The notes beneath the pieces are model-generated. The model searched no databases. It saw nothing but the letters and a program-made list of their open reading frames with translations, and was not told where the DNA came from. DNA of 64,000 nt from Candidatus Binatia bacterium. GTDB lineage: Bacteria > Desulfobacterota > Binatia > Bin18. The DNA lies in the NCBI GenBank assembly GCA_022820725.1, contig JAJEFA010000001.1, forward strand, positions 182,749-246,748. Direction: 5' to 3'. Each line of letters begins with the position of its first letter. The stretch's first letter is position 1. Shown here in pieces: positions 26,822 through 46,792 of this stretch. Position numbers and translations under genes: made by a program.

Positions 26822-28087
26822 TCAGTGTTTGCTCTCTTCAGGAGGTAGCTCCTCGCCTGCATCGCCCTGGGCAATGCGCATCCGCACCTGGACCGCCCGG
26901 CCGCCTTGCTCCTCAACCACCTCGGCAACCGCGTTTCGGAGGCGGACCTGGTCGCCGACCTTGAGCAGCCGATTCAAGCGGCTGACCAGCAGCCCCGACA
27001 GCGTATCCACATCGGGCGCATACAGATCAAGCCCCAGCTCCCGGTTCACTCGCTCGATCGGCAACTGCCCGCTCACCTTGAAGATATCGGCACCTTCGGG
27101 CACGATTTCCGGCGGCTCGCTGTCAAACTCGTCCTGCACGTCGCCGACAATCTGCTCAACCACGTTCTCCATGGTAATGACACCGACAACCGAACCGAAC
27201 TCATCGTCAACCAGGGCCATCTGCTGGTGGGTGCTCTGCATCTCTCGCAAGAGCCGGCTGATCGGCAGGGTCTCGGGGATATGTCGGATAGGCCGCGCGA
27301 CCGACCTGAGAACGCCATCGTCGTCGCCCGTCAGGCCCAGCAGGTCCTTGACGTGAACCAGCCCGATCACCTCGTCCAGTGACCCGATACACAGCGGAAA
27401 GCGCGTGTGGCGCGTGTCCTTGGCGATTTCCAGGCATTTTTCAAGCGACCAGTGCACATCGAAGAACACCACATCCCGGCGGGCAACCATCACCTGGCGC
27501 GCCAGCATATCGTCAAAATGAAAAACCGCGTTGAGGAGTTGCAGTTCCGAGGCGGACAACTCGCCCGCCTTCCGTCCCAGATGGATATCGGCCCGAATCT
27601 CATCCTCCGTGACGGCGGGCACACCCAGGCCGCCGGTAAAGAAGCCGGTAAACGCCTGCGTGACCCGAATGAGAGGTGCAAGACCTCTCTGCATCAGCGT
27701 CAGCGGCCAGACGATCAGATGCCAGATGGTGCGCCAGTGGGTTGCCCCGTACGTCTTGGGAAGAATCTCGCCCACAAACAGGATGGCAACGGTCAAACCG
27801 ATGGAAAACGCCGGCACCCAGACTGCGCCCAGCATCTGCGCGGCGTACATTCCGCAGAGTGTTGCCCCGGCCGTGTTCGCAATCGTGTTGAGTATCAGGA
27901 TCGCCGAGGTCGGGCGGGCGATGTTCGCCTTCATGGCGATGAACCGCTCGGCCAGGCGGGCGTGTTTCCCCTCTGCCCGCTCGGCCTCAAGCGACCCGAT
28001 ACGGGTCGAGTACAGTGTGGCTTCGAACAGCGAGCACATGCTCGATATCAGAACCGTCAACCCGGCAACGACAAGCAGCATCGTCAT
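26822..28087 (-). CDS. corC: CNNM/CorC-HlyC family Mg2+/Co2+ efflux protein (DUF21, CBS pair, CorC_HlyC)
   Basis: N-terminal DUF21 TM domain, central CBS pair (...VVFFDVHWSLEKCLEIAK...IGLVHVKDLLGL...) and C-terminal CorC_HlyC domain. Start at MTMLLVV behind GGAGGGG. Confidence 0.8.
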   Translation of the reverse strand: MTMLLVVAGLTVLISSMCSLFEATLYSTRIGSLEAERAEGKHARLAERFIAMKANIARPTSAILILNTIANTAGATLCGMYAAQMLGAVWVPAFSIGLTVAILFVGEILPKTYGATHWRTIWHLIVWPLTLMQRGLAPLIRVTQAFTGFFTGGLGVPAVTEDEIRADIHLGRKAGELSASELQLLNAVFHFDDMLARQVMVARRDVVFFDVHWSLEKCLEIAKDTRHTRFPLCIGSLDEVIGLVHVKDLLGLTGDDDGVLRSVARPIRHIPETLPISRLLREMQSTHQQMALVDDEFGSVVGVITMENVVEQIVGDVQDEFDSEPPEIVPEGADIFKVSGQLPIERVNRELGLDLYAPDVDTLSGLLVSRLNRLLKVGDQVRLRNAVAEVVEEQGGRAVQVRMRIAQGDAGEELPPEESKH

Positions 28088-28115
28088 CTTTGCCCCTCCG
28101 CTCTGTGAACCCGAT

Positions 28116-29426
28116 TCATAACAGCGATGAAAACACGGTCGCCAGCCCAAGAAAACTGAAGAAGCCAAAGACATCGGTGACCGTGGTCAGCACGATGGAG
28201 GAGGACTGCGCCGGGTCCTGCCCCATTCTCGCCAGGAGCACGGGGATCAGCGCTCCGGCAACGCCGGCAATGGCCATCGCCAGCACCATCGCCAGGCCGA
28301 TGACGAGCACCAGTCCGGGCGACCCGCTCCACACGTAGACACCGGCACAAGTGACAAGGGCGACGCCCAGACCGTTCACCAGGCCGGCAGCAAATTCCTT
28401 GGTCACGACCTGGGGCCAGTGGCGCAGGGTGATCTCACGCAGGGCCAGCCCGCGCAGAACGACGGCCAGGGCCTGCGCGCCGGTGTTGCCCGATTGACCG
28501 GCCACAACCGGCAACAGGACGGCGAGCGCGGTGAACCGGGAGATCGTATCCTCGAAGACTCCAACCACAGCCGCCGCCAGGAATGCGGTGGCCAGGTTGA
28601 TCTGCAACCAGGGCAGGCGCTTGCGAATGGCGAAGCTCACTTTCGAAAGGGCGCGCTCTTCCTTGCTCGCGCCCGTCATGCTGACGAGGTCGGCGCTGAG
28701 TTCTTCTTCGACCGCGGACACCATTTCGTTGAGCCGGATGATCCCCAGCGGCTTGTTGTCATAGTCGACCACCGGAATGCTGGTCAGCTTGTGGCGCTCC
28801 ATAGTCTCGACGATCTCTTCACGGGTGGTGAATGCGGAGACGGCCACCGGTACCCCGGTGACCAGGGACAGCAGGGTCGTTTCCGCCTCGGCCAGCACCA
28901 CCTCTTGAATGGGAACAGTCCCGGACAGACGCCCGTCGCGGTCCACAATCAACAGATCAAGCACGCGCCGTCGCTGTCGTATCGACCGCAGCCGTTCCAG
29001 GGCCTCCTCGACTGTCATATCAGGCTGAAAAACCGTAATGCGGGGGTCCATGAGCCGGCCGGCACTGTCCGCGGGATGCTGCATGAGAGTGTGCAACTCC
29101 TTCGCCTCTGCCCGCGCCAAACCCGCCAGGAGGTCGTCACAGCGTTGTGTCCCGAGTCCGCCCAACAATGCGCCGGCCTGGGGAGGGTCCAAATTGCGGA
29201 TCAGTTGTCTGCCGTGATCGAGATCGATCTCCGCGAGAATATCCAGGGCCTTTGCCGGCGACAGACGGCGGAATGCTTCGATACACGTTTCCGGCGCCAC
29301 GTGGGAGAGCATCTCATCCGCCTCGGATGGCGTCGAGGTTTCGAGGTGATCCGCCGCTTCCTCCGGATGGCGTTCAAAAAAGTCCCGGGCGAGCAATCGT
29401 TCGACTGCAAGGCTAGCGGTTGGCAT
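28116..29426 (-). CDS. mgtE: Magnesium transporter MgtE
   Basis: MgtE_N domain, CBS pair and a 5-TM C-terminal channel domain (...ALAVLLPVVAGQSGNTGAQALAVVLRGLA...). Confidence 0.85.
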   Translation of the reverse strand: MPTASLAVERLLARDFFERHPEEAADHLETSTPSEADEMLSHVAPETCIEAFRRLSPAKALDILAEIDLDHGRQLIRNLDPPQAGALLGGLGTQRCDDLLAGLARAEAKELHTLMQHPADSAGRLMDPRITVFQPDMTVEEALERLRSIRQRRRVLDLLIVDRDGRLSGTVPIQEVVLAEAETTLLSLVTGVPVAVSAFTTREEIVETMERHKLTSIPVVDYDNKPLGIIRLNEMVSAVEEELSADLVSMTGASKEERALSKVSFAIRKRLPWLQINLATAFLAAAVVGVFEDTISRFTALAVLLPVVAGQSGNTGAQALAVVLRGLALREITLRHWPQVVTKEFAAGLVNGLGVALVTCAGVYVWSGSPGLVLVIGLAMVLAMAIAGVAGALIPVLLARMGQDPAQSSSIVLTTVTDVFGFFSFLGLATVFSSLL

Positions 29427-30255
29427 GGCGCGTCTCTCCCGGCTGATTGGTCACAGGGGAACCGGCACTCGACCCTCCGAACATCTCACTGAGTCCGAGT
29501 GAGTAGAACTCACTGAGGGAGGCCAGCAGGTGCATGGCCGGGGGGCGACTCTTCCGGGTCTCCAGATGTTTGAGGGTATCGGCTCCAATAGTCCCCAGGA
29601 ATGTTCCCTGCGAATCCACAACCGCAATGGGTTCCGGCGCCGCGTGCCTGGCACCCAGCGTCTGGGCGCTGGCATGGGAAGGCATCCCCGGCGTCGTGTC
29701 CAGTTCCAAAGACTCGACAGGCGTATCACGTCTGCTACCAAGCAACTGGCCCGGTGTCACAGCACCCACAAGACGCTGGGAGCGGTCAAGCACGAAGACC
29801 CGAGAGGCGACCGGACCGCCGCTTTCGCTGAGACGGGTCAGCGCTTCTCCTGCCGTGAGGTCGGAGTGGAGCGTGAGCGCCGACGGGTCGGCGAGCGCCC
29901 CGGCCGACTGGGCCGGATACTTCAGCGCTTGATCGAGCGACACCCGAGCAGTGGCCGAAAGACCACCGAGCGCATCTTCCCGGACCGCCGGTTCCAGGTG
30001 GCGCAACAGCGCGGCGGCAATCGACACTGGCACCTGCTCCACGACCCGCGAACGCTCTCCCTCCGGCCAGTGGGCGAGGCATGAACCGGCCAGGACGGGA
30101 GCAAAGCAGGCAAGCACACCGGCAGCGCTCTCGACGGGCGCTGCCTGCAAGGCGGCCACGATTTCACTCGGCGAGAATCCTTCCAACACCCGTGCCGCTT
30201 CCTCGGGGTGACGGTTCATATGCACATATGCCGCCCTTTGCGTAGCCGTCTGCAT
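29413..30255 (-). CDS. Soluble MgtE_N-like plus CBS-domain protein (no membrane domain), translationally coupled to mgtE
   Basis: N-terminal resemblance to the MgtE cytosolic domain followed by a CBS-like segment (VFVLDRSQRLVGAVTPGQLL). Overlaps the mgtE start by 14 nt. Confidence 0.5.
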   Translation of the reverse strand: MQTATQRAAYVHMNRHPEEAARVLEGFSPSEIVAALQAAPVESAAGVLACFAPVLAGSCLAHWPEGERSRVVEQVPVSIAAALLRHLEPAVREDALGGLSATARVSLDQALKYPAQSAGALADPSALTLHSDLTAGEALTRLSESGGPVASRVFVLDRSQRLVGAVTPGQLLGSRRDTPVESLELDTTPGMPSHASAQTLGARHAAPEPIAVVDSQGTFLGTIGADTLKHLETRKSRPPAMHLLASLSEFYSLGLSEMFGGSSAGSPVTNQPGETRHANR

Positions 30256-31070
30256 CAGTCCCTCCTCAGTACTACCGATATTTCGTCACAATACTTTCTT
30301 GCCGGGAGATGCACCTGACCGTCAGCCGCATCAAGCACAATGGACGTGGGGGTGATTTCTCGCACGATGCCTTCAATGCCGGCTACACGCACGACATCGC
30401 CGACCCGGTATGCCTTTGCCGCGTAGTACGAGGCCATGATGTTACTCACAATCGGGCCTGAGCCCAGGCTGAGCGAGAGCGCTACTCCCCCCAGGGTTGC
30501 GGCAATAATGATGAGAATCGTCGTTGTGAAGAGTCCGCTCTCCAGGCCGATTTCCTGCGCCCCAACGAGGAGGGCAACCACAAGGACGGCTATCTGGGCG
30601 ACCCGTCCGAGAACTGACGCATACTCGACGCCGGCCGCCGCCGCCACCCGTGTCGTCCACCGATTGACCAGAATTCCTGCGCCCAGTCCCATAAAGACCA
30701 GCACGACCGCTAACAGGACGCGGGGCAGGTAATAGGCGATACTCTGCAACAGGTCCGTCACGACCGGCAGGGGCAGCTTGTCGATCGCAGCAGCCACGAA
30801 GAACAACAGCACGACCCAGTACACGAGCGTTCCGATGATCCGTGGGGCATCCTCGGCGAGTCTCGTTCCGCTGAGACTTTCAGCCAGACGGAACTGTGTG
30901 TTGATGCGGGCGACAGCCGCCACGATAATCTTTCTCGTGAGGAAACGGGCAATAATCGCCGCAATCCAGCCCACCAACAGCAGGCCGCCCGCGCCCAGGG
31001 CCGCAGGCAGCATCGGAGCGAGACGCTCTGATATGTGCTCCAGGACGTTCGTCCAACTGGAAAAATTCAT
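30255..31070 (-). CDS. Small-conductance mechanosensitive channel (MscS family)
   Basis: 3-TM N-terminus plus MscS beta-domain signature ...YRVGDVVRVAGIEGIVREITPTSIVLDAADGQVHLP. Start at MNFSSW behind AGGAGGAG. Confidence 0.7.
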   Translation of the reverse strand: MNFSSWTNVLEHISERLAPMLPAALGAGGLLLVGWIAAIIARFLTRKIIVAAVARINTQFRLAESLSGTRLAEDAPRIIGTLVYWVVLLFFVAAAIDKLPLPVVTDLLQSIAYYLPRVLLAVVLVFMGLGAGILVNRWTTRVAAAAGVEYASVLGRVAQIAVLVVALLVGAQEIGLESGLFTTTILIIIAATLGGVALSLSLGSGPIVSNIMASYYAAKAYRVGDVVRVAGIEGIVREITPTSIVLDAADGQVHLPARKYCDEISVVLRRD

Positions 31071-31175
31071 GGCTCCTCCTGAAAGGTTTGTCACAGGAAT
31101 CAGGGATTCCGACTACAAAGGTGAAGCAGCAACGCTCATGAAAACAGGAAGTAAGAAAATCCACACATGATGGTA

Positions 31176-31943
31176 TCATGCGGATTCAAAGAAAAGGGTG
31201 AGAGCCCTCTCGAAGCGGCGCTTCAATTCGCTCAGCCGTTTGGAGTCCATAGCCAGGGTTTCCCGCTCAAACCAGGGCGCTGCCAAATAGAGCGAACGGT
31301 TCATCTCAACCTGAATCCAGGGCAGGGGCCTGCCGCCGTAGGTACGCGTAATATAGCCACCCGAAAACGGCTGATTGAGCGTCACTTCGTGTTCTTGCAG
31401 CTCAAAGGCCCGCCGTAAGCAGTCGGCCAGGCGCCGGGCGGTCTCCGGCGGACAGGCCTGACCCCGGGCGTTGCCCAAACAGAAGAGGGGACGGGGTTGG
31501 CCCACGTCGGGCGAAATCTGCGGCCCGACCGCCTGCATGGAATGACAATCAAGGGCCAGCTTGATTGTCGAGTTGTGGACGGCGGCGCGAAGCCGCTGGT
31601 GATACGGTGCATAGTATCGTTCCAGCAGGGTGTCGATTAACGCGGCATCAAGTTCTTGCCCACGCGCGTAAATCTTCTTGCCCACACAGGTCAGCGTCTT
31701 GACCACACCGTCCGGGTTCCGGGGCGGCCGGTCGTCGCGGGCGCGGTTCAGGTCCACGAAGGTACGAGGAATATGCGTGGCGACCACCGCGGCGACTTTT
31801 TGGCCGAGGTCGTATATCTCCCGCACAAAAGGATCGATATCGTCGTGAATATCGAGCGGGTCGAGACACACCCTGTCCTTCACCTCGGCAGGCACCCCCA
31901 TGCCGCCGTGCGGGATGGAAAGCAAGACGGGCAGCGTGTCCAT
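31176..31943 (-). CDS. N-formylglutamate amidohydrolase (FGase)-family protein
   Basis: LSIPHGGMGVPAEV...DLNRARDD... blocks typical of the FGase/zinc-carboxypeptidase-like fold. Start codon overlaps the ggt stop (TAATG). Confidence 0.6.
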   Translation of the reverse strand: MDTLPVLLSIPHGGMGVPAEVKDRVCLDPLDIHDDIDPFVREIYDLGQKVAAVVATHIPRTFVDLNRARDDRPPRNPDGVVKTLTCVGKKIYARGQELDAALIDTLLERYYAPYHQRLRAAVHNSTIKLALDCHSMQAVGPQISPDVGQPRPLFCLGNARGQACPPETARRLADCLRRAFELQEHEVTLNQPFSGGYITRTYGGRPLPWIQVEMNRSLYLAAPWFERETLAMDSKRLSELKRRFERALTLFFESA

Positions 31944-33568
31944 TACAGGCCCCCTGCCGTCCCGTCCCGACGGACTTCGGCCACCCCCTGAAAGCCGTTC
32001 CGCGTCTGGCATTTCAGGACTGCATGAATCGCGCCAAGGTAGAAGGCGTAGGGCTTGCGCCGGTCAATCTTATAGCCCATGTTTTCAAGATAACTGACCA
32101 CGCTGGGATCAAAGCGGTCGGCCTCAATGCTGAGCTTGCCCCCAATAGAACAGTGAAAGCGGGGATGCCGCATGGCTTCATCCATGGACAGCCTGCCATC
32201 ACCGCAGTGGACCAGAAACTGGCCGACCGTTGAAAAGATGCGTTCACTCCCCGGACTGCCCGTCACCATCCAGAGTTTGTCGTCATGAAAAATCAGGGCC
32301 GGCGCAACCGAAGTCCAGGGAACCCCGTTGGGTCTGAGATAAAAGGGATGAGCCGGATTCTTGACCTCAAAGGCATCCATATAATTGTTATAGAGAAAAC
32401 CAAGCTCCGCGGCGGCAGCCTTTGAGCCATAAACCAGCTCTATTGACTGCGTAATCCCAACGGCGTTGCCTTCCGCATCCATAACGGACAGGTGAGTGGT
32501 CTCACTCGGTCCCTCAGGCGGGTCAATCAATGGGAGATGGATATCCATATCGTCCCGAATCGACTTTGCCAGTTCTTTGGCAAACTTCCGGTTGATCATC
32601 TTTTTATCGGGAAACTGGGGGTAGGTATTCGGATCAAACGGACGCTCACGACGTTGCAAAAACGCCTTACGAAAGGTTTCGGCGATAAAGTGATAGGACT
32701 CCTTTGAGCGGCTCCGCAGAAACCTGGACGGCAGGTGGCTGAGCATCAACAGCACGAGCAGCAGCGTGCGCCCGGCGGCAGGCGGAGGAAGGGTGACAAT
32801 AGACAGGTCCCGGTACCGTCTTCTGAGGGCCGGCCGCTCAACCGGCCACGGTATGAGCGCCAGGTCATCCGCGCGCAAAAACCCGTCATTGGCCCGCATG
32901 TCCGCATCAATTTGCTGAGCGATCCTGCCCTGATAAAACGACCGGGGCCCATGAGCGGCGATATGTTCCAGGGTGGCCGCCAGTTCAGGCTGCTTGAAAA
33001 TCTCCCCGGCACCGTACGGCACCTTGCCTTCCTTGAGAAAATAGCGCGCTCCGGAACGTGCCGGGATGGCCAGGAACTGTTCCAGCGAGCGGTCCTGGAG
33101 GTCATGCTGAAGCGGCGTGATCGCATAGCCGTCCTGGGCGATCCGGATGGCCGGTTGTACGACGGTTGACCAATCCAGTTTGCCGTACCGAAAATTGAGA
33201 TAGCCCAGGACGGCCACGGTGCTGGGGACCGTGGTGGCTCGATAGCCAACCGCGTGATCGCCCTTGTCGAACTGACTGATATGGGCGAGCGAGGGCGCGC
33301 GGGTCGAGCCATCGATGGTGATGGTTTTCCCCCGGAGGTGCAGAATGGCCATCGTCTGCCCGCCAATTCCACTGGCCTGCGGTTCGCACACCCCGACCGC
33401 GAGAGCGGCGGCGCAGGCCGCATCGACGGCATTGCCGCCCTGCCGGAGCATTTCGACGCCAGCCTGGGTGGCATCGGGAAAGGCAGTGGCGACCATGCCG
33501 TTTTCGGCAGCCGCCGCTTTTTGATCTGCGGTTGGGGCGAAACGGCCCTCCGAGGTGGCGATCTTCAT
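31943..33568 (-). CDS. ggt: Gamma-glutamyltranspeptidase
   Basis: MVATAFPDATQAGVEMLRQGGNAVDAA... N-terminus and the autoprocessing/catalytic region ...GSETTHLSVMDAEGNAVGITQSIE... (Thr nucleophile motif), about 540 aa. Confidence 0.85.
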   Translation of the reverse strand: MKIATSEGRFAPTADQKAAAAENGMVATAFPDATQAGVEMLRQGGNAVDAACAAALAVGVCEPQASGIGGQTMAILHLRGKTITIDGSTRAPSLAHISQFDKGDHAVGYRATTVPSTVAVLGYLNFRYGKLDWSTVVQPAIRIAQDGYAITPLQHDLQDRSLEQFLAIPARSGARYFLKEGKVPYGAGEIFKQPELAATLEHIAAHGPRSFYQGRIAQQIDADMRANDGFLRADDLALIPWPVERPALRRRYRDLSIVTLPPPAAGRTLLLVLLMLSHLPSRFLRSRSKESYHFIAETFRKAFLQRRERPFDPNTYPQFPDKKMINRKFAKELAKSIRDDMDIHLPLIDPPEGPSETTHLSVMDAEGNAVGITQSIELVYGSKAAAAELGFLYNNYMDAFEVKNPAHPFYLRPNGVPWTSVAPALIFHDDKLWMVTGSPGSERIFSTVGQFLVHCGDGRLSMDEAMRHPRFHCSIGGKLSIEADRFDPSVVSYLENMGYKIDRRKPYAFYLGAIHAVLKCQTRNGFQGVAEVRRDGTAGGL

Positions 33569-35754
33569 GCCTGGAATCCCTCTGCGGCAAGGCGAATGGT
33601 CATCGCCAGGACGGCAGCACGGTCGATTAAGCTGTCGCGCAGAATATACTCGTTGGGGGTCTGCGTCGCGCCGCCGATCGGGCCAAATCCGTCCAGGGCG
33701 GGAATCCGGTCCGGGACGTGACAGATATCAGACGAAGTGTCCCGATGCGCCTGGCAGACTTTGACTTCTAATCGTTTGGCCACCTGTTCGACATGGTCGT
33801 AGAATTCCTGATCCTTTTCGTTATCGACAACAGGAAGCCGCGATACCCGCCTGGACACCCGGACCTGACAGCGCGGCGGGAGATTTCTCCGCGCAATCCC
33901 CCGGATCTGCTCTTCGAGTCGTTCCCCCTGGTCCGGCTCACGAAATTGTACGGAAAGCGCAGTACTCGCAAAGTCGGGAGCCAGGCCATACAGCGTGCGC
34001 CCTTCGAGCTGGGTCGGCTTGATAAAGATGCCGCTCTCTTCGGATGTCAGTCTGTCCCAGGCGGTCAGCTTTTGACACAGGATTTTGATCACGTCAGGAA
34101 ACTTCCCGTTCTCGCCGGTCTTGCTGTTCGATACTTCAATCTGAAAATCACTCCGACCCGAACACGAGGTCACAATGCCACCCTCAAGACTGCCGCTCTT
34201 GAGACCGACGACATAGTGAGAGTTCAGGGCGAGTTCTTCAACGATCTTCCGGCTGAAGCGGCCGCCCAGGGCGTCATCCGTGGTCAGCAGGACACCGCAG
34301 CGGATGCGGTGCAGGCGGCGAGTGAAACGCAGCGCCCGCAGGGCCGCCAGCATGACCGCCAGACCGCCCTTGCTCTCGGTAACTCCCGAACCGTAGAACC
34401 GCCCGCGCTCCTCGCGAAAGGAGACAAAGTCGCGATAGGAATAGAGGGTGTCGAGGTGGGACAGCAGCAGGATATCGTTGCGTTTACTATCGTGATTGGA
34501 GAAGTACAGGACGTTGCCCACTTCGGTCTGCGGATAGACCTGTCTTTTGAATCGCAACTGGCTCAGGACCTTGGAGAGCCAACTGCCGAATTCGTTGACC
34601 CCTTCGGAATTATAGACGTAGGTATCCATTCCAACCATGGAACGCAGGTCGTCTTCCATAGTGGTCAGGTTGCTGCGGATGTGAGACCGCACCTGGACAC
34701 GCAAGGGTTGCGTCTCATCAGGCTTCTTTTCCCGGTTCGGGAGACTGATGACGTTTGGGTCGGGCCGGCCAAAATACCGGACGGCAGCAACATCAAGCAT
34801 GCGGTTGACCAGCGTTTCATAAGTGTAGCCGGCGGTCTGGGCGGCATGCACGTACGACCCGGTTCTCCCCAGACTGGCCATCGAGTTGATTTCCAGGACG
34901 TAGGGCTTGCCGTCAGCGTCCATACGCACATCAATGCGGGAGAAGTCGTACAGCCCCAGCGCATCGAATGAGGCCCGGGCCAACTGACGGAGTTCTTCCG
35001 TCATGGTGTCGGACAGCTTGGCCGGACAGATTTTCTGTACCGGCTGCTGGAGTTTATTGTCCTGGGTCTGAATCGCGTTGGGGTCGCCGCCAAAGTCGAA
35101 TTCAACAATAGGCAGCACCTCCAGGTCCGGGCCGTTGCCGAGCAGGCCCACCGCGAACTCGCGGCCGGCAATAAAGGCTTCGACCAGCGCCTGCTGATGA
35201 TAGTTGTCGATAATCTCCTTAACGGCCTCCCGCAGGTCGTCCTTGTTGTCAACGATCTTGAGACCCATGGAGACGGCTTCCATCTTGGGTTTGACAATGA
35301 CGGGATAGGTGACGCCGTCCATATCGTCGTCCGGCCTGGCAAAAAACCAGAATCCCGGAGTTGCCACACCGTGTTGCTGAAACACGATCTTGGCCATGAT
35401 TTTGTCCAGCGCGACGGCGTGCGCCTGGGGGCCGGAGCCCACATAGGGAACGCCCAGCATTTCCAGCATGGCCGGCATATGGGTGTAACGGCTCTGCCCC
35501 TGGATGCCGTAGGCCATATTAAAGACCATGCCCGGCCGTTCCCCGGCCAACACGCGCGGCATGAAGTCCCGCAACTCATCCGCGACATCGATATTGCCCT
35601 CAACCACGCGGACGTTATGACCGCCCTTTTCCAGGGACGAGGCCACGAGTTCTACGGTATGTGGATTATAGGTTTCCTTGGTCTGCGGGCCGAAGGTGTT
35701 AATCACGTCCGAGGGATGGACTTCCCGCTTGTTGTAGATCACTGCCACTTTCAT
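33565..35754 (-). CDS. Fusion protein: N-terminal D-Ala-D-Ala-ligase-like ATP-grasp domain plus C-terminal M20-family metallopeptidase (ArgE/DapE/CPG2-like) domain
   Basis: N-terminal MKVAVIYNKREV...MLEMLGVPYVGSGPQAHAVALDKIMAKIVFQQHGVATPGF...VIVKPKMEAVSMGLKIV (Ddl-like). C-terminal ...GVTESKGGLAVMLAALRAL... (M20 signature). 4-nt overlap with ggt. Confidence 0.75.
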   Translation of the reverse strand: MKVAVIYNKREVHPSDVINTFGPQTKETYNPHTVELVASSLEKGGHNVRVVEGNIDVADELRDFMPRVLAGERPGMVFNMAYGIQGQSRYTHMPAMLEMLGVPYVGSGPQAHAVALDKIMAKIVFQQHGVATPGFWFFARPDDDMDGVTYPVIVKPKMEAVSMGLKIVDNKDDLREAVKEIIDNYHQQALVEAFIAGREFAVGLLGNGPDLEVLPIVEFDFGGDPNAIQTQDNKLQQPVQKICPAKLSDTMTEELRQLARASFDALGLYDFSRIDVRMDADGKPYVLEINSMASLGRTGSYVHAAQTAGYTYETLVNRMLDVAAVRYFGRPDPNVISLPNREKKPDETQPLRVQVRSHIRSNLTTMEDDLRSMVGMDTYVYNSEGVNEFGSWLSKVLSQLRFKRQVYPQTEVGNVLYFSNHDSKRNDILLLSHLDTLYSYRDFVSFREERGRFYGSGVTESKGGLAVMLAALRALRFTRRLHRIRCGVLLTTDDALGGRFSRKIVEELALNSHYVVGLKSGSLEGGIVTSCSGRSDFQIEVSNSKTGENGKFPDVIKILCQKLTAWDRLTSEESGIFIKPTQLEGRTLYGLAPDFASTALSVQFREPDQGERLEEQIRGIARRNLPPRCQVRVSRRVSRLPVVDNEKDQEFYDHVEQVAKRLEVKVCQAHRDTSSDICHVPDRIPALDGFGPIGGATQTPNEYILRDSLIDRAAVLAMTIRLAAEGFQA

Positions 35755-36949: not shown

Positions 36950-38767
36950 CTATATTTCTTCCAGAACGGGTCCGTCCGTGTGGGCTGGTGCGGTGCCGGC
37001 GGCGTGGGCGTACTGCAATTGGTAGAGGCGCCAGTAAATGCCGCGCTGCGCTATCAATGCCTGATGGGTGCCGACTTCCCGCAGCCGGCCCTTGTGCAGA
37101 ACGATGATGCGGTCGGCATTCTGAATGGTGGAGAAGCGATGCGCAATCACCAGGGTGGTCCGGTTCTGCATCAGCTTGGTCAGCGCATCCTGAATGAGCA
37201 CCTCGGTCTCCGGGTCAACGCTTGAGGTGGCTTCGTCCAAAACCAGAATGGCCGGGTCATAGGCCAAGGCGCGGGCAAACGACAGGAGCTGGCGCTGGCC
37301 GGCGGACAGGTTGGCGCCCCGCTCGTGCAGGTGTTCGTGGTAGCCGCCCGGCAGCTCCCGAATAAAGCCCTCCGCATTCACATGCCGGGCGGCCTGCCGC
37401 AGGTCGTCCGGCGTCAGGTCGGTCCGGCCCAAACTCAGATTGGTGGCCACATCGCCGACAAACAGGAAGACATCCTGCAGCACCACGCCAACCCGGCGGC
37501 GCAGGGCGTGCATATCCCACTCGCGAATATCGACGCCGTCCACCAGGATGCGGCCGCGCTGAATATCATAAAAGCGGTTGAGCAGCTTGCTGATCGTGGT
37601 CTTGCCCGCGCCGGTCGCGCCGACCAGGGCAATGCTCTCACCAGGGGCGACCGAAAAGGACACGTCCCGCAGCACCCATTCCTCCTCGTTGTACGCAAAC
37701 CAGACATGCTCGAAGTCAATCCGGCCCGCCACCTCGTGCGGCCGATGTGCCGCAGGCGGAGAGGTGATCGTGACCGGCGTGTCCAGCAGTTGAAACACGC
37801 GCTCAACCGCGGTCATGGCCGTCTGCATGGTGGTGTATTTGGTACTGAATTCCCGGATCGGCACAAAGAACTTCTGCAGATACTCGATAAAAGCCACCAG
37901 CGTCCCCAGGGCGACCAGACCCTGGCCGACCTGGCCCGCGCCATACCACAGCATAAGCGCAATCGAGATGATGCTCAGCGCCTCGACAATGGAGAACAGA
38001 CTGGCCTCATACATATTGGAGAGGTGGTTGGCGTCGCGGTGGGCGCGATTGCGCTGCTCAAACTCGGCAAACATTTTTCGTTCCTGGGCAAACACCTGTA
38101 CCACCATAATCCCGGACAGGGTTTCCTGCAGAAAGGCGTTGATCCGCGCCAGGCGTTCCCGGATGGTCCGGTAGGTCACCCGCGTCCGGGTCCGAAAAAA
38201 ATTCAGGATGAGCAATAACGGGGGCAGGAGGGCCAGCGTCACGACCGCCAGGTGAAAATCGATGGACAGCATAATCACGACAATGCCCACCAGGGTCAGG
38301 ATGTCCATGAAGATGGTCAGCGTCCCGGCGGAGAACGCCTCGTTAATGGCATCGACATCCGTGGTCAGACGGGTGACCAGGCGCCCGACCGGCGTACGCT
38401 CAAAAAAGCTCGCCGGCAGTTCCTGCACGTGGGTGAACAAGTCGCGCCGCAGATCGGCCAGACTGCGCTGGGCGACCAGCATCGTGGCCTGGAACTGCGC
38501 ATAGAAAAACAGAAACTCGCCGAGCAGGGCGGCGGCAAACAGCAGACCAATGCGCGTCAGCCCCGCAGCGTCCCCCTGCTCAATATACCAATCCACGCCC
38601 AACTTGAGCAGATACGGCTGGGCCAGGAGACAGGCGGAGGTCAGCGGCAGACAGACCACGGCCACGATAAAGGTCGCGCGGTACGGCCGGATATAGACCC
38701 ACAGACGGCGCAGGAGCGCCAGGTCATAGGTTTTGCCGAGGGCGGCTTCGTCTTGTCCCTGGTTCAC
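36950..38767 (-). CDS. ABC exporter, fused permease/ATPase half-transporter (MsbA/multidrug-like), subunit 2
   Basis: 6-TM domain followed by a nucleotide-binding domain with Walker A GATGAGKTT, signature LSAGQRQLL and Walker B ILVLDEATS. Confidence 0.85.
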   Translation of the reverse strand: MNQGQDEAALGKTYDLALLRRLWVYIRPYRATFIVAVVCLPLTSACLLAQPYLLKLGVDWYIEQGDAAGLTRIGLLFAAALLGEFLFFYAQFQATMLVAQRSLADLRRDLFTHVQELPASFFERTPVGRLVTRLTTDVDAINEAFSAGTLTIFMDILTLVGIVVIMLSIDFHLAVVTLALLPPLLLILNFFRTRTRVTYRTIRERLARINAFLQETLSGIMVVQVFAQERKMFAEFEQRNRAHRDANHLSNMYEASLFSIVEALSIISIALMLWYGAGQVGQGLVALGTLVAFIEYLQKFFVPIREFSTKYTTMQTAMTAVERVFQLLDTPVTITSPPAAHRPHEVAGRIDFEHVWFAYNEEEWVLRDVSFSVAPGESIALVGATGAGKTTISKLLNRFYDIQRGRILVDGVDIREWDMHALRRRVGVVLQDVFLFVGDVATNLSLGRTDLTPDDLRQAARHVNAEGFIRELPGGYHEHLHERGANLSAGQRQLLSFARALAYDPAILVLDEATSSVDPETEVLIQDALTKLMQNRTTLVIAHRFSTIQNADRIIVLHKGRLREVGTHQALIAQRGIYWRLYQLQYAHAAGTAPAHTDGPVLEEI

Positions 38768-40551
38768 AGTTCCGCCAGTTCCTCTTCGAGCGCCTGATCC
38801 TGAAAGAGTTCCGTATACATGCTCCCCCGCTCGACCAACTCCGTGTGCGTTCCCATCTCGACGATCCGTCCCGCATCCAGGACAACGATGAAGTCGGCGT
38901 CCCTGATGGCCGACACCCGGTGGGAAATGATCAGCACGGTCTTTTCCGTGGTGCTCGTCCGCAGCGCCTGGAGAATCTTCCCCTCCGTGGTCACATCAAC
39001 GCTGGACAGCGCGCAGTCCAGGACGAGGATGGGCGTGTCGGCCAGCAAGGCCCGGGACAGCGTCAGGCGCTGCTTTTGCCCGCCCGAGAGCGTCATCCCC
39101 CGCTCACCGATGACGGTCTCATACCCTTTGGGAAAATCCTCAATCTCACCGTCAACACTGGCCAGGACGGCCGTCCGGCGCACATCGCCGCCGTCCACCT
39201 CGGGCTGAGAAAAGGCGATATTGTCTTCAATGCGGGCCGAAAAGAGAAACGGATCCTGGGGCACAAAACCGATGCAGCGCCGGAGCTCGGCCAGTGAAAA
39301 AAGCCGAATATCCCGTCCGTCAATGGTGATGGCACCGCGTGTGACATCGAACAGACGCGGCAGCAGATGGACCAGGGTACTCTTGCCCGCGCCCATACGC
39401 CCGACAATGCCGACGGTTTTTCCGGCCGGGACCGTAAACGTAATATCGTGCAGGACCGTCCGTCCGTCAGGGACATGCCCATTACCCGCCTCGCCGCCCG
39501 GCCTCCGGTCATCAAGCGGATAGGCAAAATCCACGTGCCGAAACCCAATCTCGCCCCGCACCGTTTGCCCGCTCCGGCTCGCGCCGTTCTCCCGACCGTC
39601 AACGATATCGGGCCGGGTCTGCCAGATCACCTCCAGCCGTTGCATGGCCGCTTTGCCACGCTGATACAGGGAGATCAGCCAGCCCATGGCCATGGTCGGC
39701 CAGGCCAGCAGGTGGAGGTAACCCATAAACGCCACCAGGTCGCCCAAACTGAGCCGGCCGGCAATGACCTGTGAGCCGCCGTACCACAACACGACCAGCA
39801 GCCCGGTTCCGGATATGCCCTTCATCAGCGGCGGGAACAGGCCGCGCAGGCGGGCCAGGGCAATATTCTCGGTCTTGAAGCGCTCATTCAGCCCGCCAAA
39901 GACGCCGTTCTGCCAGGCCTCACGCACATAGGCACGAATGACCGGCATACCGCTGACGCTCTCCTGGACGCGACTCGACAGGTCGGCCAGACCGGCCTGC
40001 ACGTTGAGTGTACGCTCCATGAGCTGGCGGCTCATCGCCCTGACCACCAGAAACATGAAGGGATACGGAGCGATCGCCAACAGGGTCAGGATCGGGTCCA
40101 TGGCCAGCATGGCCGCCATGGCATACACGTAATACAGCGGGGTGTTGAGGATATTAATGATGCCCAGGCCGAGCAGCAGACGCACCGCGGTCACGTCGTT
40201 GACCAGGCGTGACATCAGGTCGCCGATGGGCTGGCGCTGGTAATAGCTCAGGGAGAGGGTCTGTAGATGGGCAAACAACTCGTTGCGGAGTTGGTACTCG
40301 ATATCCCGCCCGACGTTGAAGATCAGAAAGCGCGAAAAAGAGCGGACAACCCCCTGGAGCAGGGCGATCCCGATAATGAGCAGGACCGTAGACACGATCT
40401 CGCGGACCGGGCGGCCGTGCTCGATCCCTTCAACCGCCTGCTTGAGCAGCCACGGGATGGACATCGCCAGGGTCGCCGTCATCACCAGACAGGCGATGCC
40501 GCGCATATACCGATACCGGTATTGATAAATATAGCCCCACAGACGTTGCAT
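38764..40551 (-). CDS. ABC exporter, fused permease/ATPase half-transporter, subunit 1 (heterodimer partner)
   Basis: TM domain plus NBD (GRMGAGKSTL, LSGGQKQRL, ILVLDCALS); 4-nt overlap with the downstream subunit. Confidence 0.85.
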   Translation of the reverse strand: MQRLWGYIYQYRYRYMRGIACLVMTATLAMSIPWLLKQAVEGIEHGRPVREIVSTVLLIIGIALLQGVVRSFSRFLIFNVGRDIEYQLRNELFAHLQTLSLSYYQRQPIGDLMSRLVNDVTAVRLLLGLGIINILNTPLYYVYAMAAMLAMDPILTLLAIAPYPFMFLVVRAMSRQLMERTLNVQAGLADLSSRVQESVSGMPVIRAYVREAWQNGVFGGLNERFKTENIALARLRGLFPPLMKGISGTGLLVVLWYGGSQVIAGRLSLGDLVAFMGYLHLLAWPTMAMGWLISLYQRGKAAMQRLEVIWQTRPDIVDGRENGASRSGQTVRGEIGFRHVDFAYPLDDRRPGGEAGNGHVPDGRTVLHDITFTVPAGKTVGIVGRMGAGKSTLVHLLPRLFDVTRGAITIDGRDIRLFSLAELRRCIGFVPQDPFLFSARIEDNIAFSQPEVDGGDVRRTAVLASVDGEIEDFPKGYETVIGERGMTLSGGQKQRLTLSRALLADTPILVLDCALSSVDVTTEGKILQALRTSTTEKTVLIISHRVSAIRDADFIVVLDAGRIVEMGTHTELVERGSMYTELFQDQALEEELAEL

Positions 40552-40560
40552 GCGTTCCGC

Positions 40561-41856
40561 TCAGTTTACCGGGGCTTCCATCGCTGACACGGCCCTTGAG
40601 TCCCTCCCCTCCAAACCGCTCGCGACCCGCATCATCAGCCCCACCGTGGCCCACCACACCAGCGCGACTTCCGCGTCCCCCCAGTTATACTGGGTCAGAC
40701 CGCCGATCAGAAACCCGACCAGGCCGAGCCAGCAGCCCAGGGTCAGGCTTTTCAGTGGCTCGGTCCGCTGTCTCGCATAGGCACGCCAGCCCGTCATGAT
40801 AATCGAGCCGACCAGGAAGAGAAAGGCCGCCAGGCCCAGCAGGCCGGTATCCACCCACATCTGGAGGAAATTATTGTGCGCGTGCGCATCGGTGTCGGCC
40901 TGGGGATAGCGCTGATAAAACGCCTCCCGAAACTGCTTATAGTTCCCAAACCCCCAGCCGGTCAGGGGCCGCTCTGTGATCATATCGATATTGGCCAGCC
41001 AGATCTGGCTGCGCCCGATATTGGCCTCAAAGTCAAAGATCGACAGGCCCCGTTCGCGCACCCCCGGCCCGGCACTGACAAAGAGCAGACCGCACACCGC
41101 CACCCCTCCAACCACGGCCAGCACGGCGCGACGGCCCTGTATCAGCCCATACAGGACCAGCACCACGCCATAGGCGACCCAGACCCCGCGCGTGAGGGAG
41201 AAAAACAGGGCCAACAGCATACACACCCACCCGCCGACCAGCAGGAGACGCTGCGTTTTCAACCGCCCGGGAGACAACCCCCGGGCGGTGATCAGACACA
41301 GCGGAAAGAGCAGGGCATGGGCGTAGGTAATCCCGGACGGATGCAGCCCTTTGACCCGGTAGCCCTCCTGGCGGCCAAACCAGAACGGGTCAAGGTTGGA
41401 CTCCTTGCCGACCAGAGTCTTGGCCAGATCGAGCCCGGTAAAATGCTGCACGATGCTGTACACCGCAACCGCTCCGGCGACCCAGAGCGCCACGGTCAGC
41501 AGTTTTTCGACCTCCCGCCCACTCCGGACGAGCACAAAGACCGCCAGACAGCCGCCCATGAGCCACATTTTCCGATAGCCGATGAAGGACTGAAGCGGAT
41601 CGGGGCTCAGAACGCTTGAGACCAGGAGCGCGGCAAAAAAAGCGCCAAAGGGCCACCACAGCGGCGTTCGGGGCAGAGCGCGGGTCCGCCACAGCGTATA
41701 GCCGAGGCAGGCCAGCAGACAGCCCAGCGCGGTTTGCTGAAAGGCGATGGGGAGATTCCAGACGGCAAAAAACAGCACCAGCAGGCTGACCCGCAGAGCA
41801 TCCTCCCACCGCTGAGGCTGTATCAGGGCCGGCACCATCCGCATCCTATACGCCAC
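40561..41856 (-). CDS. O-antigen ligase / polymerase-like membrane protein (Wzy_C / WaaL family)
   Basis: About 11 TM helices with a large periplasmic loop near the C-terminus (...RSQIWLANIDMITERPLTGWGFGNYKQ...AHNNFLQMWVDTGLLG...), typical of O-antigen ligase family proteins. Confidence 0.65.
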   Translation of the reverse strand: MAYRMRMVPALIQPQRWEDALRVSLLVLFFAVWNLPIAFQQTALGCLLACLGYTLWRTRALPRTPLWWPFGAFFAALLVSSVLSPDPLQSFIGYRKMWLMGGCLAVFVLVRSGREVEKLLTVALWVAGAVAVYSIVQHFTGLDLAKTLVGKESNLDPFWFGRQEGYRVKGLHPSGITYAHALLFPLCLITARGLSPGRLKTQRLLLVGGWVCMLLALFFSLTRGVWVAYGVVLVLYGLIQGRRAVLAVVGGVAVCGLLFVSAGPGVRERGLSIFDFEANIGRSQIWLANIDMITERPLTGWGFGNYKQFREAFYQRYPQADTDAHAHNNFLQMWVDTGLLGLAAFLFLVGSIIMTGWRAYARQRTEPLKSLTLGCWLGLVGFLIGGLTQYNWGDAEVALVWWATVGLMMRVASGLEGRDSRAVSAMEAPVN

Positions 41857-43324
41857 GCCGGGTCAGGATGACCTTGACCGTCTCGGTCAAGACACGGACG
41901 TCCAGCCACAGCGAATAATTATAGATATAGGCCAGGTCGTATTTCAGCTTGTACTCGGGCGAGGTGTGGTATTCGCCGTTGACCTGGGCCAGGCCGGTCA
42001 GGCCGGGTTTGACCTGAAGACGTTCCGCATAACCGGGAATCGTCTGCTGAAACTCGGCCACAAACTCGGGCCGCTCCGGGCGGGGCCCAACCAGACTCAT
42101 GGAGCCGTTGAGGACGTTGAAGAGCTGCGGGATTTCGTCAATCCGGGTGGCCCGCAGCAGGCGGCCGACCGGCGTCACCCGGCTGTCGTCCGAGCGGGCC
42201 AGCACCGGACCGGTTCGGGCCTCGGCCTCATTGACCATGGTGCGCAGTTTATACAGGGTGAATTCCTTTCCGTGCCGGCCCACCCGACGCTGCCGGTACA
42301 GCACCGGCCCTGACGACGAGAGTTTGATCAGGCAGGCGGCCACGCACACCAGCGGCAAACACACGACCAGCAAGACGCCGGCAATCAGGCGATCACCGAG
42401 ACTTTTCATCACAAAGGCCAGTTCTTCACGCGGATTTTTCAGCACCTCGACCAGGGGCACATCGTGCAGACGCACGGACGACACCCGTCCCACCAGAATG
42501 TCATAGACGGAGGGGACCACGAGGACGCGCGGCCGTTCGGACGCCATGTGGCCGCTGGGCAGATTCAACAGCCGGTCAACAAACGTGTCTTTCCAACTGG
42601 CGGACGACAGGAGAATCACCTCATCGATCTCGACCCGTTCAAGGACCTGGGGCAGACCGTCTATCCTGCCCAGCCACGGGACACCCACCTCTTCCGGTGT
42701 CTGACAGGCGGATTCCTCCAACCCGATTGCGCCGACGACATCGAGACCGGGAGACGGATGGAGGTCCGTCAGGCTGGAGAGAAACATCCGCACATCCTGC
42801 GCCAGACCGATCAGCAGGACACGCACCGGGCTGGAGTGTCCGAGGCGATGGTTCGCCCACAGCCGCACGCCAATAATGCCCAGGGTATTAAACACCCAAA
42901 AGACGACCAGCACGGAGCGCGGGAAGGACAAGTCGCCCCGAAAGAAATACCACGCCGCGGTGGCCAGCAGTTGGATGCCGAGGGCCGTCGCCACCCGCGT
43001 CACCAAACGGACACGCCGGTGCAGTGCCGGCTGGTCGTACAAGCCGAAGAAATAGAGCAGTGCCACCTGCGTCCCCAAGAGCAACAGCAGGGGATGGACC
43101 ACTTCCGCGAAACGCGAAGCCGGCAGGAAATCCGCCGTCAGGGGAAAGGGCAGATAAACACGCAGGGAAAAGGCACTCCCATACGCAATGCCGGCCCACA
43201 CCAGGTCGGCCAGCATCAGCAGGAGAACGGTCTGATCGCTTCTGCGGGGTGACCGTCTTCCGGAGTCGCGTGTTCTTCCTGGCGTTTGAGACCCTGGCGT
43301 TTGAGACGGAAACACGGGCTTCAC
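41846..43324 (-). CDS. Polyprenyl-phosphate sugar phosphotransferase (WbaP/exopolysaccharide 'bacterial sugar transferase' family), initiating enzyme
   Basis: C-terminal catalytic domain ...LYRQRRVGRHGKEFTLYKLRTM...IDEIPQLFNVLNGSMSLVGPRP..., N-terminal TM segments. Start placed at the GTG overlapping the upstream GT2 stop (GTGA). The track ORF runs to 43540 but would overlap the GT2 gene by 220 nt. Confidence 0.75.
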   Translation of the reverse strand: MKPVFPSQTPGSQTPGRTRDSGRRSPRRSDQTVLLLMLADLVWAGIAYGSAFSLRVYLPFPLTADFLPASRFAEVVHPLLLLLGTQVALLYFFGLYDQPALHRRVRLVTRVATALGIQLLATAAWYFFRGDLSFPRSVLVVFWVFNTLGIIGVRLWANHRLGHSSPVRVLLIGLAQDVRMFLSSLTDLHPSPGLDVVGAIGLEESACQTPEEVGVPWLGRIDGLPQVLERVEIDEVILLSSASWKDTFVDRLLNLPSGHMASERPRVLVVPSVYDILVGRVSSVRLHDVPLVEVLKNPREELAFVMKSLGDRLIAGVLLVVCLPLVCVAACLIKLSSSGPVLYRQRRVGRHGKEFTLYKLRTMVNEAEARTGPVLARSDDSRVTPVGRLLRATRIDEIPQLFNVLNGSMSLVGPRPERPEFVAEFQQTIPGYAERLQVKPGLTGLAQVNGEYHTSPEYKLKYDLAYIYNYSLWLDVRVLTETVKVILTRRGV

Positions 43325-44139: not shown

Positions 44140-44162
44140 TGTTGTGTCCCAGATTGATTAGA

Positions 44163-45185: not shown

Positions 45186-45409
45186 AGAGGTCTTGTCGGG
45201 AGGTTTGGGGAGTAGAGGATATCCCCGTCCGGGTAATACTGGAGCTTCATGTCTACCTCCTGCCCTATTATGGTTTGAAACTCCGATCAAAGAAAGCGTT
45301 GAAGATTGTCTCATTATCGGATGAAATTTCATCCTGGGCGATTCCTCCATCCCGCGGAGAGATTATACATGAGTTTGTCTGGATTCTCAGCGGTTTGGCG
45401 AGCGGCCCC

Positions 45410-46765: not shown

Positions 46766-46792
46766 GGGTCTGTCCTGTCTCAACCCAGCCCC

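Follow-up and report, generated by a model that had tools for sequence, protein, structure and literature searches.

An ATP-grasp amide ligase fused to a probably metal-free M20-like module heads a conserved three-gene cassette in bacteria and archaea

Amide ligases of the ATP-grasp type are known in settings that combine them with proteins of hydrolase ancestry. GspSA joins an ATP-grasp ligase to an active N-terminal CHAP cysteine amidase, and the pairing of ATP-grasp and M20 enzymes is a hallmark of the LysW pathway. Here we describe a gene on a stretch of 64,000 nucleotides from Candidatus Binatia bacterium (assembly GCA_022820725.1, contig JAJEFA010000001.1, positions 182,749 to 246,748 of the forward strand; called the window throughout), which encodes in a single polypeptide an ATP-grasp domain of the Ddl superfamily followed by a module with the fold of M20 peptidases. 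This fusion is best filed within the ATP-grasp amide ligases, with a conserved, metal-site-degenerate M20 module, at the head of a conserved cassette formed by the fusion gene, a GGT-like gene and an FGase-like gene. Our literature search found no description of the fusion or the cassette, the amidoligase survey of Iyer et al. 2009 lying outside its reach.

The fusion shares features with each of the systems that come closest to it. Like GspSA it unites in one polypeptide an ATP-grasp amide ligase and a domain of hydrolase ancestry, but its second domain is an M20 module at the C terminus whose metal site is degraded, and hydrolases are encoded by separate genes after it in the operon. As in LysX/ArgX and LysK, an ATP-grasp and an M20 fold are brought together around a glutamate-type linkage; LysX, however, is of the RimK type, LysK is a separate active metalloenzyme, and the LysW carrier needed there has no conserved counterpart here. 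The Ddl enzymes (DdlB, DdlA, VanA) share the fold and the ATP/Mg2+ machinery of the ligase half, whereas the fusion has other residues at the D-Ala site, the insertion MAYGIQGQSRYTH, an archaeal occurrence and an M20-like fusion partner. CPG2 (MEROPS M20) shares its complete catalytic and dimerisation-lobe fold with the C-terminal half, which differs from it in having lost metal ligands and the lid His motif and in being placed behind a ligase. E. coli GGT has the Thr nucleophile and the full-length G_glu_transpept match in common with the GGT-like protein of the cassette, which lacks a signal peptide and in which the gamma-glutamyl recognition residues are changed. Finally, the N-acetylglutaminylglutamine amide (NAGGN) operon asnO-ngg-PA3461 makes a dipeptide osmoprotectant and contains a peptidase gene; Ngg is a GNAT-family acetyltransferase that also forms a peptide bond, AsnO an amidotransferase and PA3461 a glutamyl aminopeptidase (PMC8070244). 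This operon, in which a multidomain peptide-forming ligase makes a Gln/Glu dipeptide, is similar to the cassette in being small and in containing a gene of the peptidase kind beside the ligase gene, yet the enzyme families are unrelated and the osmotic role suggested for the cassette comes from its neighbours alone. The fusion gene, its parts and the rest of the cassette are located in the window as follows.

33565..35754, minus strand: fusion gene, ATP-grasp ligase plus M20-like module, first gene of the cassette (open reading frame (ORF) of 729 amino acids with ATG start; Pfam and NCBIfam domains, structural model, relatives)
34765..35754, minus strand: ATP-grasp (Ddl-superfamily) ligase domain, residues 1-330 (profile matches, family alignment)
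34708..34764, minus strand: interdomain linker, residues ~331-349, predicted to be disordered (predicted local distance difference test score, pLDDT, <50 at residues 330-347)
33568..34707, minus strand: M20-like (CPG2-like) two-lobed module, residues 350-729 (alignments, Foldseek)
31943..33568, minus strand: GGT-family Ntn hydrolase, 541 amino acids, without signal peptide, its start overlapping the stop of the fusion gene (Pfam, NCBIfam, cassette alignment)
31176..31943, minus strand: FGase-family (PF05013) amidohydrolase, 255 amino acids counted from Met24, the longest ORF extending to 32012 (Pfam, overlap)
31164..31182, minus strand: hairpin with T-run directly after the FGase stop, possibly an operon terminator, on weak evidence

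The initial annotation had described this ORF as an unusual single-polypeptide fusion of a Ddl/ATP-grasp-like region of about 330 amino acids with an ArgE/DapE/CPG2-type M20 region of about 350 amino acids. Profile searches bear out both regions: Dala_Dala_lig_C matches residues 140-320 (E 1.2e-31, 110 bits against a cutoff of 24) and Peptidase_M20 (PF01546) residues 429-720 (E 3.8e-17, 63.3 bits against a gathering threshold of 24.6). NCBIfam models for Ddl cover residues 37-324, and CPG2-like or "hydrolase" M20 models cover residues 358-725, all of them scoring far under their curated cutoffs. An AlphaFold2 model built on a 20-sequence alignment (mean pLDDT 79.5, predicted template modelling score (pTM) 0.54, pLDDT ~90 in the M20 half) contains two separate folds with a disordered linker between them at residues 330-347. 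In a Foldseek comparison with the PDB, the top match was CPG2 (1cg2; E 1.6e-27, template modelling (TM) score 0.77, 381 of 389 residues aligned), with PahZ2 second-best and DapE, LysK (5xoy) and carnosinases among the lower ranks. The ligase half matches Ddl structures at TM ~0.71 and 25-28% identity.

A search of 5.8 billion proteins yielded 114 relatives of 690-760 amino acids, mostly ~720-740, with 52-96% identity and ~99% coverage. In a locus scan with one genome per species, at least 570 places were found to encode a relative with the ATP-grasp signature of the family, and all counts of neighbouring genes given below cover the best 80 of these loci (labelled with L-numbers). Essentially all of the best 80 carry full-length fusions, with identities down to ~44%; the top locus stems from a Candidatus Binatia metagenome-assembled genome (MAG) with 96% identity. 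Because the single-ORF architecture is conserved both in the relatives and at these loci, a hidden frameshift or an undetected stop that would turn the ORF into two genes is excluded, and the Pfam match leaves the M20 assignment of the C-terminal region in place. We regard the architecture and the assignment to a three-gene operon as practically certain. Conservation is unevenly distributed over the protein, the mean pairwise identity in the family being 68% for the ligase half and 51% for the M20 half, whose catalytic lobe (56%) is better conserved than its lid lobe (37%).

One copy among the loci is split: in a Methanosarcinales MAG (L064) the ATP-grasp part (8001-9056) and the M20-like part (9096-9935) are encoded separately, which is either natural or due to an assembly or frameshift error. 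An additional ATP-grasp paralogue is encoded at the same locus, as is a divergent member of the aminomutase family.

We analysed residue conservation in an alignment of 115 fusion-family members. In the ligase half the ATP/Mg2+ catalytic residues K155, R273, D275, R277, E288 and N290 are invariant; in DdlB the equivalents are K144 (K155), R255 (R273), D257 (D275), E270 (E288) and N272 (N290). The situation is different for the Glu15 motif, His63, Ser150, Tyr216 and Ser281 of DdlB, which we take to be D-Ala-binding positions. At the D-Ala positions of DdlB the family has Y82 for H63, Q87 for E68, V161 for S150 and G299 for S281, each replacement being invariant in the family, and Tyr216 is absent (Lys234, followed by Met or Leu). 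The N-terminal GGxSxE motif that contains Glu15 was not found in the alignment of the ligase half to DdlB. The scores of the Ddl models are in line with this, NF002378 reaching 159 bits (cutoff 243) and TIGR01205 140.6 bits (cutoff 245.65). Where Ddl has the "HGxxGEDG" loop, the fusion has an invariant family-specific motif or insertion, NMAYGIQGQSRYTH (residues 79-92). Within it, MAYGIQGQSRYTH...GSG (residues 84-92, window 35479..35505) shows the strongest conservation of any motif in the ligase half; the AlphaFold2 model is least confident in this region (pLDDT <50 at residues 83-108), which is probably a mobile, family-specific substrate loop.

Judged by these residues, the N-terminal half appears as an intact ATP-grasp carboxylate-amine ligase of the Ddl superfamily with a specificity other than that of Ddl. 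As the D-Ala-specific residues are replaced, the ligase half would form some other amide bond, and together with the presence of the family in archaea the replacements exclude a role as the peptidoglycan Ddl. In the window and at the 80 related loci we found no mur or ftsQ neighbours.

The ligase subfamily is not confined to the fusion. An exhaustive HMMER search with the ATP-grasp half alone returned 623 cluster representatives (50% identity) at E <= 1e-30. Among them are stand-alone proteins of ~325-350 amino acids with up to 59% identity as well as many representatives of 640-700 amino acids in which the domain stands behind an N-terminal extension of ~300 amino acids. Two proteins of ~658 amino acids encoded at fusion loci (L005:1483-3459 and L067:4371-6350) also consist of an N-terminal extension and an ATP-grasp domain of the same subfamily. 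By eye only, their extension looks like an S-adenosylmethionine (SAM)-dependent methyltransferase.

The M20-like half was aligned to CPG2 using phmmer, with a chain numbering that reproduces the published ligand numbers, and to the canonical M20 proteins encoded beside the fusion at two loci (L007 and L051). Only one of the five co-catalytic ligands of CPG2 (H112, D141, E176, E200, H385) is kept in the fusion: His112 corresponds to H433, a position occupied by His in 109 of the 115 family members. Asp141 is replaced by E460 (Glu in 109 members) and Glu200 by K519 (Lys in 108). Glu176 is replaced by A495, where the family has Thr, Ser, Ala or Asn and none of the 115 members has Glu, and His385 by Q698, where Arg occurs in 51 members, Gln in 24 and His in only 6, besides Gly and Asn. 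The general base Glu175 of CPG2 is represented by D494 (Asp in 91 members, Glu in only 6). Two further residues of the pocket, D435 and D493, are found in all 115 members. The HxD and KGG motifs of CPG2 are still present in the M20-like half, and a motif GVTESKGG sits at residues 457-464, while the His motif of the lid lobe is missing in both alignments. The canonical M20 proteins of L007 and L051 keep HMDT, GTSDMKGG, SDEELG, AECAG and EHTSEE.

According to these alignments the second metal site appears to be gone and a lysine to occupy a ligand position of the first site. The pocket made up of H433, D435, E460, D493, D494, A495, K519 and Q698 is remodelled and probably metal-free. Since the replacement residues are themselves conserved, we infer that the M20-like half is no longer a co-catalytic zinc peptidase, and we consider it quite probable that it is not a canonical metallopeptidase. 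It may rather represent a repurposed pocket used for binding a ligand or presenting a substrate, for regulation or oligomerisation, or for an unconventional catalysis. As the half derives from a glutamate carboxypeptidase, a ligand of the glutamate type is plausible. The further suggestion of the initial annotation that an active ligase is combined with an active M20 hydrolase that edits its product is not supported by this comparison, given the single metal ligand kept, the change of the general base from Glu to Asp and the family-wide occurrence of the changes. The hydrolytic partners of the ligase are more plausibly the products of the two coupled genes downstream, which the initial annotation had not linked with the fusion.

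These two genes are tightly joined to the fusion. The stop of the fusion gene overlaps the start of the GGT-like gene in the sequence ATGA, and the stop of the GGT-like gene overlaps Met24 of the FGase-like gene in TAATG. Met24 is likely the true start of the latter, which gives a protein of 255 amino acids as in the orthologues. A GGT-like gene is present at 59 of the 80 loci, mostly right behind the fusion on its strand, and an FGase-like gene at 43-44, usually next after the GGT-like gene and likewise on that strand. The order fusion, GGT-like, FGase-like is kept in both bacteria and archaea, and many of the absences are due to contig ends. De novo clustering of all neighbours at the 80 loci revealed no further widely conserved gene. 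The PF10023 aminopeptidase and ABC exporters encoded upstream in the window were considered as members of the system and rejected, each being present at 1 of the 80 loci.

PF01019 covers the GGT-like protein over its full length (E 2.2e-116), and the score against TIGR00066 (356.1) is just under the cutoff (357.85). Among 54 cassette GGT-like sequences, the Thr nucleophile T357 (equivalent to E. coli Thr391, within a TTH motif) is conserved in all 54. We then looked at R114, N411, Q430 and D433 of E. coli GGT, presumably the residues that recognise the alpha-amino and alpha-carboxylate groups of the gamma-glutamyl moiety. R114 corresponds to S88, with a conserved Arg two residues later, N411 to E377 (52 of 54), Q430 to Y396 (52 of 54) and D433 to A399 (Ala or Ser). 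T409 is exchanged for Ser, and the oxyanion Gly and counterparts of S462/S463 are retained. No signal peptide is present on the short, hydrophilic N terminus, whereas an unrelated secreted GGT encoded at L009 has one. On this evidence the cassette GGT-like proteins appear to form a subfamily of their own with an altered acyl-recognition pocket, and the cassette is predicted to be cytoplasmic.

The FGase-like protein scores 187 bits against PF05013 (cutoff 28.9) and 111 against the HutG equivalog model TIGR02017 (cutoff 278.75), and there are no hut genes nearby; it belongs to the family but is probably distinct from HutG. At five loci without a GGT-like gene (L067, L069, L072, L074 and L079; Ignavibacteria, Melioribacteraceae, Bacteroidota), a gene for a class-I GATase/peptidase-C26 protein of 193 amino acids is located immediately upstream of the fusion gene. 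The C26 family is that of gamma-glutamyl hydrolases like PuuD, and this gene is possibly a non-orthologous replacement of the GGT-like gene. All four modules of the cassette descend from glutamate-handling families.

The bacterial hosts of the family belong to KSB1, Gemmatimonadota, Ignavibacteria, Calditrichota, Nitrospinota, Acidobacteria, Dehalococcoidia, Bacillota, Bacteroidota and Nitrosomonas, and the archaeal hosts comprise many Nitrosopumilaceae and Methanosarcinales of the anaerobic methanotrophic (ANME) type. Cultured marine nitrifiers are among them (Nitrosopumilus piranensis, N. ureiphilus, N. zosterae, Nitrospina watsonii and Nitrosomonas aestuarii). The relatives carry the database names "M20/M25/M40 family metallo-hydrolase" or "D-alanine--D-alanine ligase". 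The fusion is thus real, as first described, but it is hardly unusual, being widespread and already present in databases under generic names. At one locus (L035), on a contig labelled Woeseiaceae, the fusion protein is 92% identical to the Nitrospinaceae copies, which suggests a mis-binned contig or a very recent transfer. An "extra Ddl" three-gene block has been described in Colwellia MT41 (PMC7542103). Its identity with the cassette is unsupported, as no Colwellia, Shewanella or Moritella are among the nearest relatives of a proteobacterial-labelled copy.

In the window, the cassette is directly followed on the same strand by an array of ion-homeostasis genes (26822..31094). These genes and a further ion-transport gene in the window, all identified by profile matches, are:

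30255..31094, minus strand: MscS-like protein
29413..30255, minus strand: MgtE_N-domain protein
28116..29426, minus strand: MgtE
26822..28174, minus strand: CNNM/CorC protein
23359..25008, plus strand: KefC-type Na+/H+ exchanger with TrkA_N domain

Genes of this kind are the sole recurrent facultative neighbours among the 80 loci. MscS, MgtE, CorA, CNNM or K+-channel-like genes are found near the fusion at 30 loci from at least eight phylum-level lineages, at 27 of these within 5 kb. CorA accounts for 12 loci in four lineages, MscS for 11 in at least five lineages, CNNM/CorC for nine, MgtE for eight and a K+-channel-like protein for four. In Nitrosopumilus the CNNM/CorC gene is sometimes located between the fusion and the GGT-like gene.

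At two loci (L007:5352-7976 and L051:6495-9119) a radical SAM gene of the lysine-2,3-aminomutase family and the stand-alone canonical M20 gene mentioned above lie directly upstream of the fusion. Relative to 2A5H, the aminomutase has Asp293 changed to Lys and Asp330 to Thr. Ruzicka and Frey are said to have described in 2007 that the change of Asp293 to Lys marks glutamate 2,3-aminomutases, which make beta-glutamate.

We also searched for a small carrier protein. No conserved small carrier ORF was found near the cassette: the best small-ORF cluster comprises four loci, and its members all lack a LysW-like C terminus. Three Nitrosopumilus loci (L013:7800-7970, L015:4567-4734 and L020:7724-7876) share a conserved Cys-rich, zinc-ribbon-like ORF of ~55 amino acids, not LysW-like, which in L013 and L020 lies upstream of the fusion. 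On the other side of the fusion gene in the window, an exopolysaccharide/O-antigen-type cluster (40561..46783, minus strand) encodes a Wzy_C ligase/polymerase, a Bac_transf priming transferase, GT2 and GT4; it is located upstream of two ABC exporter genes (36950..40551), and its association with the cassette is not conserved. In Syntrophomonas, a match to group II intron D1-D4 (L071:15410-15599, minus strand) has no relation to the cassette.

Taken together, we propose that the fusion leads a cytoplasmic, translationally coupled set of three enzymes, the other two being the GGT-like and FGase-like proteins. The ligase would condense the carboxylate of an acidic, Glu-type amino acid with an amine to a small amide or peptide, and the M20-like module would bind the substrate, the product or an effector. 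The coupled GGT-like and FGase-like enzymes, the latter an N-acyl-glutamate-type amidohydrolase, would hydrolyse the product of the ligase or its precursors; at loci without GGT the class-I GATase/peptidase-C26 protein, of gamma-glutamyl-hydrolase type, would take the GGT role. The product may be an amide or short peptide of Glu, gamma-Glu or possibly beta-Glu and may, with less certainty, serve osmotic or cation (Mg2+/K+) homeostasis. A solute pool tied to osmotic and cation balance could in this way be built and then quickly dismantled. An osmotic or cation role is suggested because of the repeated linkage to MscS, MgtE, CorA, CNNM and K+-channel genes and the prevalence of the family in marine nitrifiers and in marine and sediment lineages.

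We give this composite reading, a cytoplasmic module that builds and recycles a glutamate-type amide solute tied to ion or osmotic homeostasis, an even chance of being right. The osmotic or ion-homeostasis role of the cassette, taken by itself, is somewhat doubtful and is put forward tentatively. A more far-reaching version would see in the cassette an unrecognised pathway that has spread horizontally between bacteria and archaea and would make and rapidly recycle its solute in marine nitrifiers (Nitrosopumilus, Nitrospina, Nitrosomonas), ANME archaea and many uncultured phyla, with the metal-free M20-like module as a solute- or ion-sensing or substrate-presenting domain of the ligase that ties the synthesis of a Glu-derived, maybe gamma- or beta-glutamyl, solute to the neighbouring MscS, MgtE, CorA and CNNM channels; in this full form the idea is speculative and probably goes too far.

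Several points weigh against the proposed module. The case is purely computational. The conserved residues H433, D435, E460, D493, D494 and K519 could form a new catalytic site, and the geometry between the two domains of the modelled fusion is uncertain at a pTM of 0.54. The link to ion genes is facultative, many of the loci come from related Nitrosopumilaceae, and the figure of 30 in 80 is a raw count without a genome-wide background frequency. No osmo-related riboswitch (c-di-AMP, Na+ and others) was detected at Rfam gathering thresholds in the window and 17 bacterial loci, and no conserved osmo-related regulator was found adjoining the cassette. Some of the lineages with the cassette, such as Syntrophomonas, Bacillota and Nitrososphaeraceae, have no obvious marine character. 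Finally, N. maritimus SCM1, in which beta-glutamate has been measured, is not among the homologue matches.

The last point bears on the nature of the solute. In N. maritimus, beta-glutamate dominates the solutes at 730 mM (PMC8269262); how methanogens make it had not been resolved by 2005 (PMC1224877), and eam and ablA have been treated as osmoprotectant genes (PMC9337991). With SCM1 missing from the matches, the cassette is probably not needed for the accumulation of beta-glutamate. As a beta-glutamate route of N. maritimus it is also unsupported in that no chemically plausible route was found. The sole remaining tie to beta-glutamate is the adjacency of the glutamate-2,3-aminomutase-like gene in L007 and L051.

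Other explanations of the fusion have to be weighed against this proposal. It could be a bifunctional synthetase/hydrolase whose active M20 half edits, proofreads or reverses the ligase product, in the way of GspSA. The M20 fold is complete and confidently modelled, and the strong purifying selection on the pocket residues fits a functional pocket in which single-metal or non-metal chemistry would be possible. We nevertheless hold an active M20 half to be unlikely: four of the five ligands are replaced, a Lys stands at the Glu200 ligand position, the general base is changed, the second metal site seems to be abolished and the lid His motif is missing. Some genomes moreover encode a canonical M20 separately beside the fusion, and two dedicated hydrolases are translationally coupled downstream. 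Alternatively, the ligase might be an oligo- or poly-amino-acid synthetase for poly-Glu or poly-Asp, comparable to RimK, cyanophycin synthetase or the synthesis of poly-gamma-glutamate (gamma-PGA). The M20-like half would then grip the chain, the GGT-like (CapD-type) and FGase-like (PghP-related fold) enzymes would depolymerise it, and the polyanion would buffer Mg2+/K+. GGT-family enzymes such as CapD do process poly-gamma-glutamate, the link to three unrelated families of Mg2+ transporters would suit a cation-binding polyanion, and PahZ2, which ranks second among the structures matching the M20 half, hydrolyses poly(aspartic acid). With 14% identity, however, this last match reflects the general similarity among M20 folds, no Ddl-type ATP-grasp enzyme is known to act as a polymerase, and no primer, carrier or export genes are conserved near the cassette, which makes polymer synthesis quite unlikely.

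A further scheme would place the cassette in an ATP-dependent catabolic or salvage route with gamma-glutamylation of the Puu type, in which the ligase would join an amine or amino acid to glutamate and the GGT-like or C26 enzyme, along with the FGase-like one, would then release the glutamate. The substitution of a PuuD-type C26/GATase for GGT at five loci and the origin of every module in a glutamate-handling family speak for such a route. No oxidoreductase or other transforming enzyme for a step between ligation and hydrolysis is conserved, though; the hosts include Nitrosopumilus, Nitrospina and Nitrosomonas, obligate chemolithoautotrophs with little organic catabolism, and we consider such a route decidedly improbable. 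We see very little chance of an amino-group-carrier or protein-tagging system like LysX/LysK-LysW or RimK, in which the ATP-grasp half would load the C-terminal Glu of a carrier and the M20 half would be related to LysK. The M20 half does match the structure of LysK (5xoy), and the combination of ATP-grasp and M20 is typical of the LysW pathway, but the ATP-grasp half is of the Ddl and not the RimK/LysX type, a conserved small carrier ORF, LysW-like or otherwise, is missing near the cassette, and no alpha-aminoadipate (AAA) or arginine pathway genes are conserved nearby. That the protein is simply a Ddl or an M20 enzyme, as the database names say, is hardly credible. Ddl and CPG2 are its best sequence and structure matches; still, it scores far under the cutoff of every Ddl and M20 NCBIfam model, has other residues at the D-Ala-binding positions and has lost the metal ligands. 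The family is also common in Nitrosopumilaceae and ANME Methanosarcinales, which to our knowledge make no murein.

The fusion family is widespread and occurs in ammonia-oxidising archaea and bacteria, in nitrite oxidisers and in ANME archaea. Its current generic annotations ("D-alanine--D-alanine ligase", "M20 metallo-hydrolase") are misleading. Cultured hosts exist, and the biosynthesis of solutes in marine nitrifier lineages is incompletely understood. A conserved pseudo-peptidase-like module, a three-enzyme operon and the tracking of ion and osmotic genes together lead to a testable hypothesis on solute and cation homeostasis in these organisms. The family would also add an example of a peptidase fold that has been repurposed inside a biosynthetic enzyme.

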